DNA of 51,200 nucleotides, from the sequence record MT446400.1; one strand, written 5' to 3'. Shown one piece after another: positions 1 through 14,698 of the stretch. The first letter of the stretch is position 1, and every line of letters starts with the position of its first letter. The notes under the pieces are model-generated. The model searched no databases and had not been told where the DNA came from. It saw only the letters and a program-made list of their open reading frames with translations. The translations under genes were made by a program, and so were the position numbers. Source of the stretch: Escherichia virus TH26.

Positions 1-149
1 ATTCGAACAAATTTCGGCTAGATACAGCTGACCGATTGTGAACGAACCCATATCCAGATACAGTTGACCGACCATGTACCATTTGGTTTTGGACTTTACG
101 CATTCCTAATATTACTCTTAATATTGTAGCAATATTGGGAATAAATAAA
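1..149. repeat. Copy of the sequence at 51052-51200 (wrap-around of a circular or terminally redundant genome)
   Basis: Direct comparison: bases 1-149 are identical to 51052-51200, giving a unit length of 51051 bp. Confidence 0.9.
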
Positions 150-252
150 TATTTAATTTACTTGTTTTATTCTAGCTCAAAGAGAAACGACGCTAACGCA
201 TCGAATCTCTTCTCGCATATAACTGACAAACGTCAGCCTTCGCCATACCCAA

Positions 253-1371
253 TCATAATTCAAATCCACCTAGAGCATTGGTATCAACTTCGGAGTCAAT
301 TTGCCCGACCAGATAAGAACTAATCTCCGTTTCCTGTGGAGCAACCTGCACAGCATCCGAATTCAACCATGCGTTAATCCACGGAATCGGATTAGTTGCA
401 CCTTTGAATGGAGCATCCAATCCAACTGCTTGCATACGAATATTCGTGATATATTCCACATATCCGCACAGAATTTGCTTGTTTAAGCCAATCATGGAGC
501 CATCTTTGAACAGATAATCAGCCCAATCTTTCTCTTGTTGAGCAGCATCTTCGAACAATTTCTGGCATTCTTCACGACATTCTTGAGCAATTTCGCCCAT
601 TTCTGGGTCATCTTTTCCGCTCGCCAAAATATTCAACATGTGCTGAGTTCCGGTCAAATGGAGTGCTTCATCTCGCGCAATCAGTCGAATAATCTTGGCA
701 TTTCCTTCCATTAATTTACGTTCTGCGAAGGCAAATGAGCAAGCAAAGCTGACATAGAAGCGAATTGCTTCAAGTGCGTTGATAGACATGAGGCATAAAT
801 AGAGCTTCTTCTTCAACTCACGAAGACTAATTTCATGACCAGCATGATTCCCTTCTCCGAACAACTGCCATAATGCGGTGAGTTCTTGAAGTTCGTCATA
901 ATATTGAGAGATGCCAATTGCTCGTGCTTTGATGTGCTCGTTAGTCACGATTTCATCAAAGATAATGCTCGGGTCTGTAACGATGTTTCGAATAATGTGA
1001 GTGTAAGAACGTGAATGAATAGTCTCAGAGAAAGACCATGTTTCAATCCACGTCTCCAATTCAGGAATGCTCACGATTGGAAGCAAAACTGTGTTGGGCC
1101 CACGTCCCTGGATAGAGTCAAGAAGAATCTGATAACGAAGATTACTCGTGAAAATGTGCTGTTCGTTTGTAGGTAGCTTCTGATAATCGATACGGTCCTG
1201 GGAAACGTCTACCTCTTCCGGTCGCCAGAAGAATGACAATTGTTTCTCAATTAACTTCTCGAATATGTCGTACTTCTGTTGGTCATATCGAGCAACGTTA
1301 ACGTTCTGACCAAAGAACATTGGTTCTAATAATTGGTTATTCTTGGTTTGTGAAAAGGTAGTGTAAGACAT
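253..1371 (-). CDS. nrdB: Ribonucleotide reductase class Ia small (beta) subunit
   Basis: 372 aa; collinear with E. coli NrdB as I recall it ([86 protein letters not shown]-terminal [13 protein letters not shown]). Confidence 0.93.
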
Positions 1372-1373
1372 TA

Positions 1374-1934
1374 TTATTTATTTCCTAAATACTTATAAAA
1401 TTTGTGTCCACCATAGGTTCCTCTTCCAACAACCCTTTTGAAATTACATTTCTCTGTAGCTGTGCAGAAGTGGGTGGCATCGGTTACATCTGGGGCATCC
1501 AACAATGCGAAGCTAATTGCCACATTCATGGCGTCCCAAACCTGTTTTGATTCAGTCTTCCAATTTGTTTTAACTATGTTCTTCCATTGAGCATTCTTCT
1601 TCTTTGCTTCTCTTGTCCAAGCAAACTGGTTGCGTTGATAAACCACATCGCAAACGGTGTTAGCGAATGGCTTCCCGAATTTGATTCGATTACGGACGAC
1701 ATTAGCTACCAGAATCTTTCCATGCTTGCTTTCTCCACGAGCTTCAAACCAAATTACTTTGGCATAGCATTCTATATCTTTGCGTTGAGAAATAGATAGT
1801 TTCGGATTTCCACTTAAATAGGATTGACTTGCAAATTCTGTAATAGTGGCGTTCACTGCCCCAGCCGAAGCTGGGACATTTGCGTGAAACAGACTCACCA
1901 ACAGAAATGCAAGAACTTGTGCTGAGGGCATCAT
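1374..1934 (-). CDS. Secreted cell-wall hydrolase, SleB/Hydrolase_2-like (candidate Sec- or SAR-type endolysin)
   Basis: 186 aa; N-terminal signal-like segment [24 protein letters not shown]; Hydrolase_2-like core [43 protein letters not shown]; adjacent to a holin-like ORF. Confidence 0.7.
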
Positions 1935-1949
1935 AGTTCCTTGTTTGCA

Positions 1950-2303
1950 TTATTTGGCCTTCTTAAACCAATTGAGTGGGTTGAGTTGTTTGATTGCAGC
2001 AGTGAAGCAATCTCGAATTGTGGTAATGATTAGGTTAGCCCCAATCAAACCAATCACCATTGCAGCGATTGTGGCATAGCGTGGTTCATTTTTGAATATG
2101 TCCACGAAGCCCGGGAGGGAGAAAACGAACGTACCAATGACTACACAAAGTAGGGCATCAAGAATAGCTTTCAGCAAGCCTTCCTTTTCATACGCCCCAC
2201 GAATGAGTGCAGTCAATCCAGCCAGGAGTCCGTGAAGAACCCCATATTGGTGCATAGAATCCCAAATCATTTGGAATGTAAGTCTGTCCATTTGGCGTTC
2301 CAC
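1950..2303 (-). CDS. Putative holin (small protein with 2-3 predicted transmembrane helices)
   Basis: 117 aa; hydrophobic helices (LHGLLAGLTALI, AILDALLCVVIGTFVFSLPGFV, YATIAAMVIGLIGANLIITTI), charged C-terminus, immediately upstream of the hydrolase. Confidence 0.45.
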   Translation of the reverse strand: MERQMDRLTFQMIWDSMHQYGVLHGLLAGLTALIRGAYEKEGLLKAILDALLCVVIGTFVFSLPGFVDIFKNEPRYATIAAMVIGLIGANLIITTIRDCFTAAIKQLNPLNWFKKAK

Positions 2304-2305
2304 TG

Positions 2306-2536
2306 TTAAAACAAAGTCTCATGCTTTGGCATATCTACATAACCAAGTTTGCCATTCACAATGCCAACCTGTTTACCAGAAGGGTTAGTTGCTGAAATAA
2401 ATTTAAGGGCATCTGAAGCAGTTACATCCAAGAAGTTAACTACAGGCCACACATTAGTAGACTCATATGCTTCTTTGAATTCATACGGGTAAAACAACCC
2501 ATTACTAAAACGGTATGTAATCTTTTCCATTATCAA
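2306..2536 (-). CDS. Hypothetical protein (possible tail-fiber assembly chaperone by position)
   Basis: 76 aa ORF directly downstream of a tail-fiber gene; 4-nt overlap typical of coupled genes. Confidence 0.3.
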   Translation of the reverse strand: MIMEKITYRFSNGLFYPYEFKEAYESTNVWPVVNFLDVTASDALKFISATNPSGKQVGIVNGKLGYVDMPKHETLF

Positions 2537-3078
2537 TATCCTATAGCAATCCAGTTACAGTTCTCAGCAGCACCGCTTGGGGCATAGTTCTGGATATATA
2601 TTTGGTTATTTCCGAGAGTAGCACCCATACCAGCATTTGAACCGGGAGCACCACGTGAGCCTGCTGCCCACAATCCTGCATGTGGAAATGCAATATTCAG
2701 GTTGTAGTTTTGTGCAGAATTTGGTGGAGTTGCCACAGTTCCCCACTGAATGATTACAGTTACTGCACCACCAGAAGTTGCAATGATTGGGACTTTCAAC
2801 CAACCATTGGCAGCCATTAGGCCTCCAAAAGCTTCGATTGGTGGGAGATACCCGAACACATTAGAACCAACTTGTCGTGTAGCAGCAGTGCCTAATCCGA
2901 GGTTATTACGAGAAACAGCTTTGTCCAGCAAGTCTGCTAGGTTCTGTCCTCTTTGGAGGGCATTGACAATACGAGCATCATCGCCAGCAGCAAGAGTGTT
3001 TGTAGTGGTGCCAACATTCAAGAAGGCACCATTTTTAAGTGCGGCAACTAAGCCGCCAAATGACCAACCTTTAGCCAT
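2533..3078 (-). CDS. Tail fiber protein (distal/tip segment)
   Basis: 181 aa; Gly/Ala/Thr/Asn-rich beta-type composition typical of fiber tips; last gene of the fiber cluster. Confidence 0.4.
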   Translation of the reverse strand: MAKGWSFGGLVAALKNGAFLNVGTTTNTLAAGDDARIVNALQRGQNLADLLDKAVSRNNLGLGTAATRQVGSNVFGYLPPIEAFGGLMAANGWLKVPIIATSGGAVTVIIQWGTVATPPNSAQNYNLNIAFPHAGLWAAGSRGAPGSNAGMGATLGNNQIYIQNYAPSGAAENCNWIAIGY

Positions 3079-11023: not shown

Positions 11024-14000
11024 TTATCTGCGTTCCATTGCACCATTACCCATGTTGATTGTTTGGGTAACAGTTTGACCGTTCGGAGTTGACACGGTTG
11101 CAGACGCTTGCTTGTTGTTCACAGTAGCTTTGACTTCAACGTTAACTACAGTGGCCTGTGTCTGACCATAAGACAGTCCATTTCTGGTGAAGCCAGTTGC
11201 ACCTTCCGCAATAGAATCGCCCTGAGAAGCCCATTCACGGTACTTCTTGACGCGGTTCTGTGCCTGTAGAGGAACAGCATTGAGCCAGTCGGTTCCGTGT
11301 TTGTTGATAGCATCATCAACAGTTCCAGCACCATCCGTATACGCCGCCATAACCTTCTCAGCGTCACCATTATAACGCTTGAGCATTGCATCATAGTAGT
11401 CACGACCAACGCGAGCACGCTCTTCCAGAGAGTTATCACGGGCAGGTGTAACGCCAAATCCTGGGTCACGGGAAGTTGAATCAAGAACTTGCATACGACC
11501 TTTAGCACCAGTTGGCGATGTAACCACCGAACCATCTGCGTTCAAATCGCGGTTCCCTGACTCTTCTCCTGCGATAAAGTCATAAACATTACGTGTTGCA
11601 TCGGCTGCACCATTGGGGGCCATACGCATCGTTCTGGCTGCATCTCCACCTGCTTCGATAAATGAACTTCCGTAGGATATTGCAGCTTGCGGAACTGCAT
11701 ATCCTGGCAGCACCCCAGCACGCTCCGTCTGCGCTATTCCTAGCTGTGCAACGCCATCGGCATACTGTGAGCTGGCTCCACGGCTTACGTTCTCCTGAGC
11801 CTCGTTCACGCTGTAATCTGTACGGTCATAGGCGCGAGCCATGCCATCCAGACCAGCCATTTGCATAGCGCCAGCGATACGCGCCTGACTCCAGCCCCGC
11901 TCCTGACCACGTTCGCGCATTACCCGCGCTAAGGCTACAGGGTCGCCCTGTGCCGCACGAATGTCGCCAATTGTGATAAGACCACGGGTTCCCTGAACGA
12001 TGTTCACAGCGCCGCTGGGGTCGCCATTCAGGAGAGTGTTATAGGCACTATGTGTGGTTCGATTGAGTCGGCCAGCTTGTTGCTGATTAAGCCCCAACAT
12101 TTCCAAGCCCTGCGACATGGAAGAATATTCATTAGGGTTATTGACACCAGCGTCTAAAGAGTTTCCGTAGAAATCGTTCAGACCTTCCAGAGCTTCGTTA
12201 CCAATTTGGGTAGCACCAATAGCCATACCAGCGACACGACCCCACGGAGTCATCATCATGGCATTCATAGCGCCATTGGATAAAGAGCCAATACTGCCAC
12301 CAGCTACGCCAGCAGCCAATGCACCACCCATGCGACCGAAGTCATCGCCAAAACTTCCACCAGCTTGCCACCCACGACGCCCACCACCGCCACCAGAACC
12401 ACCACCGCTAATGCCATAGCTACTAGCATCAATGTTGTCCCAGAAGCCGCCTGAGCGCCCACCGTCGCCACCGCCGAAATCTGCATCCTGACCACGGAGT
12501 TTGTTTTCTTCCTGTGCTGCGAGGATACCTTTCTTAACCGACACAGCCATCATGTCATTGCCAGTTGTGCTATCAGCGCCAACAGCAGAGGCTGTAGCAG
12601 CACCAACTCCAGCATCGGTACGGTTGCCTATGAATGGGTCATCAGGTGTGCCAGCAGCAGGAGAGTAGCCACGATTTGACCTCTGCTTAACATCCTTCCA
12701 CAGGCCGTCACCAGTCATGGCAGCACGAGCACCCTTGATTAAATCATCATTGGACAAGTCTGGATTAGCTTCAACAAACTCTCGACCAGCATTAAGACGA
12801 CCAATAACAGAATCAATCTTATCTTTGTTGCGGTCGTACCATCCTTCATCCTTGTCAATCCACTCCGACTTCGTGGTATCGCCGATGGTTTGAGAAAACA
12901 ATGCGCGCGAACGACCAGATACAAGCATCCCAAATTGAATTTGGTCCATGTAATCTTTATGGTCACCCGCAGATAAGTTGGCAAACTTGCCAGCCCTTTG
13001 AGGGTTCTTGTGTTCCCAAATCGCGTCATCGCCGATAAGACCATCTGGGGAATACATGAACGACGGATAATTGTCATTTGTAATTGCGCCAGCTTGCTCA
13101 ATGTCGAATCCAAATTCTTTGGCTACACGGTTACGAGCAACTTCTTCCGTCCGATGGCCTGCTTCGAACATTCGTTGGGTAAATTCACTTGGCCCCTTTC
13201 CGCGTTGTAGGCCAATTTTGTCAATCATTGCAGCCCAAGGTCGAGTATATTCATTGTTACCAAGAAATGAACCGACAGTTGAGCCTGTAATGTCATATTG
13301 TTTACGGAAGTCTAACCACTCCTGAGTACCCTGTTCCATATTATGAAACTTGATTGGGCCTTGTTGTGGTTCAGGCTGAGGAACAGCGGAATCCAGGTTT
13401 GCGATTGCAATGCTCTCACGACGAGAGCGAGCAGAGTTCCAACTCGTTGGTGAATCAAGCTGTGCAATAAACTCTGTAGATGGACTTAATTCAACAGGTC
13501 CAGTGTTTCTTAAACGTTCAGCAGGGTCGAAAGTCTTACTGATTTCAGCTTCATTATATTGGTGAGCATTTTCCAGTACGCCACGAATAGATGCACCAGA
13601 ATAACGAGGGTCATCACCAATATCTTTCTTTAGGTTGTCATAACCAGAACGAGCATCTGCAAGGTCTGTATAACGAGATGCAGAATCAAGAATCAAATCT
13701 CGGTCAGAAGATTGAGTGCGATATGCGTTCATCCCTCGTTCTGAACCACCAACATATACCTTAGCAGCAGATTTAACTACGCCAGATACATCTTGATATA
13801 AAGATTTACTTGCATCAGACCAACCTGGGGAGCCAGATAATGATGCAGATAAAGAATATTCAGCTTTAATGCCAGAACCCATAGAGCCTAAAGGTAGGCC
13901 AGATGCGTTAAGCGGTTGTCGGGGATGTTGAATATCACCAACAATAGATTCAGAACCAAGTTGAGGAAGAGAATCCATGTATGAAACTCTTGGCCCCGAC

Positions 14001-14698
14001 TTATTACCTACATTCATTGCAGATACAGCAGCAACTTCACGGAAGTTTTGCGGCAATTCTGATTCTAAACGTTTGGCTACACGATAAACATCTCGTGCAT
14101 AGCGGTCTGGGTCGTCATATTGTTGACGGTCAACATATATATGAGCAAGATAGCCCATAGATTTGGCAATATCTCCACGGTTTGTAGAGTATTCACCCAT
14201 AATGTCACCAGTGTAATGACCAGGAAGTTCCGGCATTATATCTTGATGACCTGCCAGCGTATCACGCATGTACGCATTAAGCATTCCCCAATGACCTTCT
14301 GGTTTGTTTGGGTTTGCTTTAGGCATGTGCATCCACACATCATCGGCGGATACACCTAATTTCTCCATGTAGGCATGAACAGCTTCTACATGGTGACTTG
14401 GACCGTTCATTGCAGCATGGAATGTTTCAGCAAGCCCAGCACCAGAAATCATCTGTGCAACGTGAGCTGAGTCTGAAATCATGTCGGAAGTGCCATAAGA
14501 GATGCCATCATCTTCTGTATAGGTTTCTTCCATAAGCTGTGAATTTGTTTCCATCCAACCAGAGGCAGCACTTGATTCAAGTTGCTGTGCCATATCTCGT
14601 TTGCGCATACCTGGATTGAATGACAGACCATATTGAGCACCTAAGCCAATCAATTCGGCTTCGGACATTCTCATTAAATCTTTTATGTTATTAGCCAT
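11024..14698 (-). CDS. Tail tape-measure-like protein with C-terminal lytic transglycosylase (SLT)-like domain
   Basis: 1224 aa; lies between the tail chaperone and baseplate genes; central Gly-rich tract (GGGDGGRSGG...GGGSGGGGGRRG); C-terminal segment with SLT-like motifs (ESGNRD...GAKGRMQVLDST...AYTDGAGTV). Confidence 0.5.
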   Translation of the reverse strand: MANNIKDLMRMSEAELIGLGAQYGLSFNPGMRKRDMAQQLESSAASGWMETNSQLMEETYTEDDGISYGTSDMISDSAHVAQMISGAGLAETFHAAMNGPSHHVEAVHAYMEKLGVSADDVWMHMPKANPNKPEGHWGMLNAYMRDTLAGHQDIMPELPGHYTGDIMGEYSTNRGDIAKSMGYLAHIYVDRQQYDDPDRYARDVYRVAKRLESELPQNFREVAAVSAMNVGNKSGPRVSYMDSLPQLGSESIVGDIQHPRQPLNASGLPLGSMGSGIKAEYSLSASLSGSPGWSDASKSLYQDVSGVVKSAAKVYVGGSERGMNAYRTQSSDRDLILDSASRYTDLADARSGYDNLKKDIGDDPRYSGASIRGVLENAHQYNEAEISKTFDPAERLRNTGPVELSPSTEFIAQLDSPTSWNSARSRRESIAIANLDSAVPQPEPQQGPIKFHNMEQGTQEWLDFRKQYDITGSTVGSFLGNNEYTRPWAAMIDKIGLQRGKGPSEFTQRMFEAGHRTEEVARNRVAKEFGFDIEQAGAITNDNYPSFMYSPDGLIGDDAIWEHKNPQRAGKFANLSAGDHKDYMDQIQFGMLVSGRSRALFSQTIGDTTKSEWIDKDEGWYDRNKDKIDSVIGRLNAGREFVEANPDLSNDDLIKGARAAMTGDGLWKDVKQRSNRGYSPAAGTPDDPFIGNRTDAGVGAATASAVGADSTTGNDMMAVSVKKGILAAQEENKLRGQDADFGGGDGGRSGGFWDNIDASSYGISGGGSGGGGGRRGWQAGGSFGDDFGRMGGALAAGVAGGSIGSLSNGAMNAMMMTPWGRVAGMAIGATQIGNEALEGLNDFYGNSLDAGVNNPNEYSSMSQGLEMLGLNQQQAGRLNRTTHSAYNTLLNGDPSGAVNIVQGTRGLITIGDIRAAQGDPVALARVMRERGQERGWSQARIAGAMQMAGLDGMARAYDRTDYSVNEAQENVSRGASSQYADGVAQLGIAQTERAGVLPGYAVPQAAISYGSSFIEAGGDAARTMRMAPNGAADATRNVYDFIAGEESGNRDLNADGSVVTSPTGAKGRMQVLDSTSRDPGFGVTPARDNSLEERARVGRDYYDAMLKRYNGDAEKVMAAYTDGAGTVDDAINKHGTDWLNAVPLQAQNRVKKYREWASQGDSIAEGATGFTRNGLSYGQTQATVVNVEVKATVNNKQASATVSTPNGQTVTQTINMGNGAMERR

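Follow-up and report, generated by a model that had tools for sequence, protein, structure and literature searches.

An nrdB gene at the end of the lysis cluster

We analysed a 51,200-nt stretch of DNA from Escherichia virus TH26 (MT446400.1), referred to here as the window, and followed up a sequence-only reading of it that had pointed to a gene for the beta subunit (R2) of a class Ia ribonucleotide reductase (RNR), nrdB, standing without a partner nrdA. The gene, placed by the list of open reading frames (ORFs), Pfam, NCBIfam and alignment, lies at 253–1371 on the minus strand (ATG start, stop included) and encodes 372 amino acids (aa). Its product matches Pfam PF00268 (E 3e-50, 171.6 bits against a cutoff of 33.6), scores 720 bits on the NCBIfam equivalog NF006576, 'class Ia RNR subunit beta', where the cutoff is 346, and aligns end to end with the solved structures of E. 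coli NrdB (E 7e-206; the family of PDB 1RIB, 1MXR, 6W4X and 9DB2, also NF006576), a protein of the same length class that is collinear with it and ends in the same kind of C-terminal tail. The identity to E. coli NrdB, put at roughly 80% by eye, comes to 301 of 372 aligned positions (81%; 80% by tblastn), with one four-residue gap that corresponds to the short deletion noticed there. Given 81% identity to solved structures, the predicted fold of the phage protein is not in doubt.

In the pairwise alignment with E. coli NrdB, all six iron ligands (D84, E115, H118, E204, E238 and H241) are identical, and Tyr122 and the radical-transfer residues W48, D237, E52, E350 and Y356 are all kept; the stable tyrosyl-radical site, Tyr122 in E. 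coli, is Tyr123 in the phage protein, and its codon lies at 1003–1005 on the minus strand. The loss of radical or iron-ligand residues, which the sequence-only reading had raised as a sign of a pseudogene, is thus not seen. The gap falls in a beta-hairpin, where E. coli THTVNGKTVTV is aligned with phage NHAGH----EI, so that G179–V182 of the E. coli protein are missing and the junction stands between phage His179 and Glu180 (832–837, minus strand). The full hairpin is present in 81 of 81 sampled bacterial NrdBs, as well as in three host-like NrdBs of other phages used for comparison, while a 366-aa subtype of the phage protein has lost ten residues at the same site. The C-terminal tail, which inserts into alpha (phage residues 339–372, E. 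coli D342–L375; 256–357, minus strand), is identical at 26 of 34 positions, the changes relative to E. coli being N343A, V351T, V353I, D368N, D369A, S371G, N372G and Q374E. The best explanation of these features is that the gene encodes a beta2 subunit of the diferric-tyrosyl radical type, predicted to be catalytically competent.

Immediately upstream of nrdB is the endolysin gene, for a cell-wall hydrolase (PF07486; 1374–1934, minus strand), with the holin gene (PF05106; 1950–2303, minus strand) upstream of that, both identified by Pfam and by the annotations of relatives. The nrdB start codon stands 2 nt past the endolysin stop, and a Shine-Dalgarno-like AGGAAA (1381–1386, minus strand) is found 9 nt upstream of the ATG, within the end of the endolysin gene; the nrdB start is predicted to be translationally coupled to the endolysin gene, and the two genes are probably co-transcribed. 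The same endolysin–nrdB arrangement is found in phage ST32 (PMC6266442). About 50 nt past the nrdB stop, a consensus scan picked out a terminator-like hairpin with a T-rich tail (178–203, minus strand), a pattern match only, in a region where terminator-like sites are no more numerous than in shuffled sequence. This hairpin would close a late transcription unit of tail fibre, holin, endolysin and nrdB. No internal nrdB promoter was found, with the sigma-70 and terminator scans at background level, and none of the repeated phage-promoter-like 13-mers that we sought for the timing of nrdB expression was present at least four times.

The genome holds no alpha subunit

Positions 1–3000 of the window matched 50 phage records by megablast, the best being Yersinia phage PYps16N and Escherichia phages TH23, MLP1, Mangalitsa and Bp10 (81–95% nucleotide identity). 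These phages belong to the genus Carltongylesvirus (Chaseviridae, Cleopatravirinae), ~52-kb myoviruses with a T7-like RNA polymerase (RNAP) whose type phage is phiEcoM-GJ1. The window runs in reverse orientation to the deposited genomes of its relatives and aligns with practically the entire 52,376-bp PYps16N genome. Moreover, its first 149 nt (1–149) return at its end (51052–51200) as an exact repeat (100% identity, no strand assigned), in the intergenic region between nrdB and the RNAP gene, which in this phage group adjoins the direct terminal repeat. From the repeat and the alignment together it follows that the window wraps a single genome unit of 51,051 bp, all unique sequence included.

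Within this complete unit we found no alpha-subunit gene, as the sequence-only reading had claimed, and this applies to every RNR class. Searches by tblastn with E. coli NrdA gave no match in either the window or PYps16N (best E 0.83), and the same searches with YfaE, likewise against both genomes, gave none (best E 0.83 to 0.93 for the NrdA and YfaE queries). Pfam searches of all ORFs of at least 345 aa and of 41 early/middle ORFs revealed no RNR large subunit, ATP-cone, NrdD, glutaredoxin/thioredoxin, flavodoxin or 2Fe-2S ferredoxin. The ORFs of at least 345 aa proved to be the RNAP, a family A DNA polymerase, a primase-helicase, terminase, portal, sheath and other tail proteins, with a 5'-3' exonuclease-like protein whose match falls below Pfam's cutoff; ThyX and DNA ligase were found among the smaller ORFs scanned, and the 41 early/middle ORFs held, of note, only dUTPase, HNH/AP2 and ArdA. 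A hidden nrdA was considered and rejected: both tblastn and Pfam came back with nothing, and the 728-aa ORF near the window end (48443–50629, minus strand), the only one in the size range of NrdA that was not otherwise assigned, is the T7-like RNAP (PF00940) and not an RNR. The orphan status of nrdB is real. Since the genome is without an alpha subunit, YfaE, glutaredoxin/thioredoxin or NrdI, partners from the host are the only option. At the same time, the phage has other genes for the supply of deoxynucleoside triphosphates (dNTPs): ThyX and dUTPase, identified by Pfam, and a deoxynucleoside monophosphate (dNMP) kinase, known from the annotation of its relatives PYps16N and 4HA13.

A genus-specific gene

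A tblastn search of 50,697 phage records returned 45 records at 90–99.5% identity, all of them Carltongylesvirus genomes of 51–56 kb, and in 45 of 45 the gene is intact, with no frameshifts and no stop codons. Two NrdB subtypes occur in the genus, one of 372 aa, to which the window belongs, and one of 366 aa, seen in ST32 and Mangalitsa. Throughout the genus nrdB sits between the endolysin gene and the RNAP/terminal repeat, and all eight relatives inspected share the order tail fibre, holin, endolysin, nrdB, ~650 bp, RNAP. Gene product 75 (gp75) of phiEcoM-GJ1 and its orthologues in ST32, Mangalitsa, Bp10, MLP1 and the PYps phages are the same gene in the same position (90–99.5% aa identity), with no substantial difference from that of the window beyond the length subtype.

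The GenBank record PP952070.1, 'Staphylococcus phage Pel53' (host listed as S. hyicus), has ~87% DNA identity to this region of the window and the same NrdB (98.7% aa identity); since that NrdB is of gammaproteobacterial type, the stated host is questionable. A 494-aa 'NrdB', P0004, on an NCBI contig was set aside, as it carries the VSYTHLDVYKRQ peptide three times together with duplicated NrdB segments and looks like translated adapter, an assembly artefact.

Beyond the genus, the next-best phage NrdBs have 64–77% identity and come from phages of 89–285 kb. In the two Privateervirus genomes that we opened, nrdA directly adjoins nrdB; in the jumbo phage AH04 no nrdA was seen within the 8-kb locus inspected. 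The sister genera Faunusvirus, Sabourvirus, Suwonvirus and Myducvirus keep holin and endolysin with no nrdB behind them, as judged for Faunusvirus, Suwonvirus and Myducvirus from the 4.5–5 kb locus running from holin-endolysin to the terminal repeat. For Sabourvirus, the E. coli phage 4HA13 (MN136198.2) was searched by tblastn over its complete genome and showed no NrdA or NrdB homologue, and yet this phage shares the module of ThyX, primase-helicase, polymerase, ligase, dNMP kinase and dUTPase. On this distribution nrdB is accessory and specific to the genus, having presumably been gained after Carltongylesvirus split from its sister genera and before the genus diversified. As expected of an auxiliary metabolic gene, it has cellular homologues, is under purifying selection in its lineage (see below) and is absent from close relatives.

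The nrdB-only state of this phage group is already known: annotation of the gene goes back to phiEcoM-GJ1, and its lone status was tabulated in 2013. Dwivedi et al. (PMC3653736) found that phages with class Ia genes nearly always carry nrdA together with nrdB, that 'two phages only contain nrdB', namely phiEcoM-GJ1 and CPt10 (their Table S1), and stated the functionality of incomplete RNR sets as unknown. In the paper on ST32 (PMC6266442), the last ORF of both ST32 and phiEcoM-GJ1 is given as the beta subunit, with no further discussion. The main value of the gene is that it allows the idea of a hybrid enzyme, phage beta with host alpha, to be put to the test.

T4-like phages and Privateervirus (Proteus phage Privateer, Cronobacter phage vB_CsaP_009) carry a class Ia beta as well, but encode the alpha subunit right beside it; the Privateervirus NrdB is host-like and ~76% identical to the window protein, while identity between the T4-like beta and E. 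coli NrdB is only 54%, and the changed contacts of the former are consistent with co-evolution with its own alpha. A radical-generating subunit without a catalytic subunit has been recorded in Campylobacter phage CPt10 (nrdB only) and Mycobacterium phage Myrna (nrdH and nrdF, no nrdE) (PMC3653736), but the former is a case of nrdA decay and the latter is class Ib, and neither is closely related to the nrdB of the window. With respect to E. coli nrdB itself, the differences are that the phage gene has no adjacent nrdA or yfaE, a hairpin four residues shorter, 23 conserved positions replaced (see below) and the base composition and codon usage of the phage.

Contacts with the alpha subunit

For the surface that faces alpha we took the contact residues, direct and water-bridged, from the 2.6-Å E. 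coli alpha2beta2 structure (PMC11551348, SI Tables S9–S11). The phage NrdB is identical to E. coli NrdB at 42 of these 46 residues, compared with 79% identity over the rest of the protein, whereas the T4-like NrdB, which has its own alpha, is changed at 16 of 46. This conservation is compatible with the use of a gammaproteobacterial alpha, although it does not prove use of the host's (see below).

We also looked for changes that mark the phage lineage. Across 81 bacterial NrdBs, 274 columns are at least 97% conserved, and 23 of these are replaced in all ten phage copies: H68N/C, K78R, T81I, S90G, V93T, A94V, L98I, N131T, V136I, D139E, I161Q, deletion of G179, V200I, D302Q, Q306G, L323A, R328A, S329T, V340N, N343A, V351T, V353I and D369A. 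Seven of the replacements fall in residues 60–100, ten in 300–375 and none in 201–299, the part with the iron ligands E204, E238 and H241. We considered whether these changes reflect a remodelled interface and rejected this, as they are not enriched at the contacts (permutation P 0.88, 0.40 and 0.25 for distances of 0, ±1 and ±2 residues).

Origin and selection

The best bacterial matches to the phage NrdB have 76–81% identity and come from Enterobacteriaceae, Erwiniaceae, Morganellaceae, Yersiniaceae, Pectobacteriaceae and Pasteurellaceae. For scale, E. coli NrdB is 96–99% identical to its counterparts in other Enterobacteriaceae, ~90% to that of Serratia, ~89% to those of Proteus and Pantoea and 85% to that of Haemophilus, so that the phage protein (81%) is farther from E. 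coli NrdB than the Haemophilus protein is. In a neighbour-joining tree of 91 sequences (Kimura distances), the ten phage NrdBs form a single clade, with a stem of 0.12 substitutions per site, that in 93 of 100 bootstraps attaches between Pasteurellaceae and the whole set of 74 Enterobacterales, a placement obtained with a distance method and a narrow outgroup and open to long-branch effects. Alternatively, the phage clade may be a fast-evolving lineage that left the Enterobacterales early.

Against 5,426 E. coli genomes, the best nucleotide identity to E. coli nrdB is 71.9%, and the proportion of synonymous differences (pS) between the two is saturated at 0.83. The GC content of third codon positions (GC3) is 0.418 in the phage nrdB, compared with 0.646 in E. 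coli nrdB and 0.412 ± 0.068 in the phage ORFs (n = 67; z 0.09), and relative synonymous codon usage (RSCU) correlates at 0.73 with the other phage genes and at 0.28 with E. coli nrdB. Within the phage clade the ratio of nonsynonymous to synonymous divergence (dN/dS; pairwise Nei-Gojobori, 10 phage copies) is 0.017–0.078 at dS of 0.2–0.9, with the upper value reached between the 372-aa and 366-aa length types, and that of bacterial nrdB is 0.03–0.04. This is purifying selection of housekeeping grade, and the gene is no decaying remnant. Its history is best explained by acquisition, long ago, by the Carltongylesvirus ancestor from a gammaproteobacterium, with placement at the end of the late/lysis operon.

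A proposed hybrid enzyme

We propose that the phage beta2 forms a hybrid enzyme with the host alpha2 and thereby raises the supply of dNTPs, a reading to which we give a probability of about 0.7. During infection the phage beta2 would load iron and oxygen via host factors, dock on host NrdA (alpha2) through its conserved C-terminal tail and provide the radical for ribonucleotide reduction. It would supplement or replace host NrdB in this way, and dNTP synthesis could then keep up with phage DNA replication, beside the contributions of ThyX, dNMP kinase and dUTPase. The sequence-only reading had likewise expected pairing with host NrdA and a boost to host RNR: an intact beta, the lack of a partner in the phage and the 42 of 46 contact residues kept all favour the pairing, and the boost is plausible. 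The arrangement resembles that of cyanophage psbA, a single-subunit auxiliary metabolic gene for which the host supplies the rest, although that gene serves another pathway and the analogy extends to the logic of the arrangement only.

Several observations weigh against a hybrid enzyme of this kind. Our literature search found no paper on a phage beta activating a host alpha and no experimental work on this gene. The four contact residues that differ are R57Q, N131T, N343A and D368N, and N131 and N343 are 99–100% conserved in the 81 bacterial sequences. Moreover, the host-like NrdBs of Privateervirus, which has its own nrdA, and of AH04 keep the contact residues as well as the orphan NrdB does, and for this reason contact conservation is no proof that a host alpha is used. 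Being the last gene of the late operon, after those for lysis, nrdB may well be expressed late, and such timing is odd for a gene of nucleotide supply. Finally, phages of the sister genera, the E. coli phage 4HA13 among them, replicate in the absence of nrdB; the gene is therefore accessory, with a benefit that is perhaps small or conditional.

The other explanations concern either the history of the gene or what its product does to the host enzyme. The sequence-only reading had taken nrdB for a recent capture from an enterobacterial host; the gene would then be a fresh and undiverged copy from the present host, and it is true that the top bacterial matches are Enterobacteriaceae (Klebsiella, Escherichia and Citrobacter, 80–81%) and that the gene is collinear with that of E. 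coli. However, the checks that it proposed, on codon usage, GC content and phylogeny, all came out the other way: with ~72% DNA identity and pS of 0.83, a GC3 of 0.42 versus 0.65, codon usage that is fully phage-like, a protein more distant from E. coli NrdB than that of Haemophilus, and a phage clade that in 93 of 100 bootstraps lies outside the Enterobacterales as a whole and not among the hosts, recent capture is contradicted, and fixation throughout the genus with deep internal divergence leaves it scarcely credible. A remnant of an ancestral nrdA–nrdB pair, left functionless and drifting once nrdA was lost, would have a precedent of sorts in the decay of nrdA in CPt10, one of only two nrdB-only phages in the survey of Dwivedi et al., and would agree with sister genera that manage without nrdB. 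We nevertheless consider it highly improbable, as dN/dS is 0.02–0.08, 45 records are without a frameshift or stop, the catalytic residues are all intact and tblastn detects no trace of nrdA.

A regulatory or inhibitory beta, one that binds host alpha or mixes with host beta dimers to shut down or sequester host RNR, would need the alpha-binding C-terminal tail, which is conserved, and might show changes at contact residues conserved in bacteria, as seen in N131T and N343A. On the other hand, an inhibitor has no need of the diiron site, Tyr122 and the full radical path, which are kept under strong constraint, and residues 201–299 are without any phage-specific change; moreover, a phage with its own DNA polymerase, ThyX, dUTPase (by Pfam) and dNMP kinase (by annotation of relatives) gains nothing by blocking dNTPs, so that we regard inhibition as very improbable. 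A deregulating beta is rather a refinement of the hybrid enzyme: it would be active with host alpha but resist the alpha4beta4 ring that forms under inhibition by deoxyadenosine triphosphate (dATP), so that host RNR escapes feedback. The RNR of phage T4, in keeping with such an idea, is not inhibited by dATP. The phage lineage has also fixed D302Q and Q306G beside the beta segment 295–300, and has a beta-hairpin shorter by 4 or 10 residues. In the inhibited ring, Ile297 of this segment plugs a pocket of the cone domain (PMC11447812). At the same time, this cone-contact residue is identical in phage and E. coli NrdB, S295, M296 and N300 are likewise unchanged, and the phage-specific substitutions are not enriched near the alpha contacts (P 0.25–0.88), which makes deregulation unlikely, in a comparison that used, on the alpha4beta4 side, only Ile297 and the 295–300 contacts.

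If the hybrid enzyme exists as proposed, it would be a compact case of a virus commandeering an essential host enzyme by supplying only its radical-generating half, and if deregulation were added, a single small gene of the phage would be enough to free dNTP synthesis from the feedback control of the host. With a real hybrid enzyme, the phage beta would also be a natural subunit, diverged by 19%, with which to probe the surface residues for alpha–beta docking and dATP feedback in the best-studied RNR. Carltongylesvirus and Sabourvirus offer a natural comparison, as they share the replication module and the host species and differ in the presence of nrdB, with 4HA13 as a natural control.

Other features of the window

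Immediately downstream of nrdB, CGGTCA(A/G)CTGTATCT(G/A)G is found as two imperfect direct repeats 24 nt apart (25–75, with the copy of this stretch at 51076–51126), and the record of phage flopper has repeat_regions annotated at the equivalent place. The nrdB–RNAP intergenic region (50630–51051) includes a homopolymer run of 33 nt, consisting of T on the coding strand (50987–51019, minus strand), which could be real or an artefact of sequencing or assembly; on its flanks are repeats of the motifs AATATTGCTACA... and GAGACTAGAATT, which resemble early-promoter or terminal-repeat elements. The direct terminal repeat of the group was shown to be 2.3 kb in PYps23T (PMC8762354) and is annotated as 3.1 kb in 4HA13, and the repeats of the relatives (2.3–3.1 kb) include the RNAP gene.

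The RNAP ORF, as called mechanically (48443–50629), begins at a TTG, while most annotated relatives begin ~77–92 residues further in (~640 aa), and the true start is probably downstream of the TTG. In the RefSeq record of PYps16N (NC_079179.1) the T7-like RNAP gene is unannotated: tblastn with the window RNAP gives 93% identity at 100–2010, with no feature beneath. Elsewhere in the window, a tail protein of 1224 aa, tape-measure or fibre-like (11024–14698, minus strand), combines a YqaJ-like nuclease domain with an SLT lytic transglycosylase domain, and its gene sits in the only GC-rich patch of the genome (0.51–0.53 versus 0.44).

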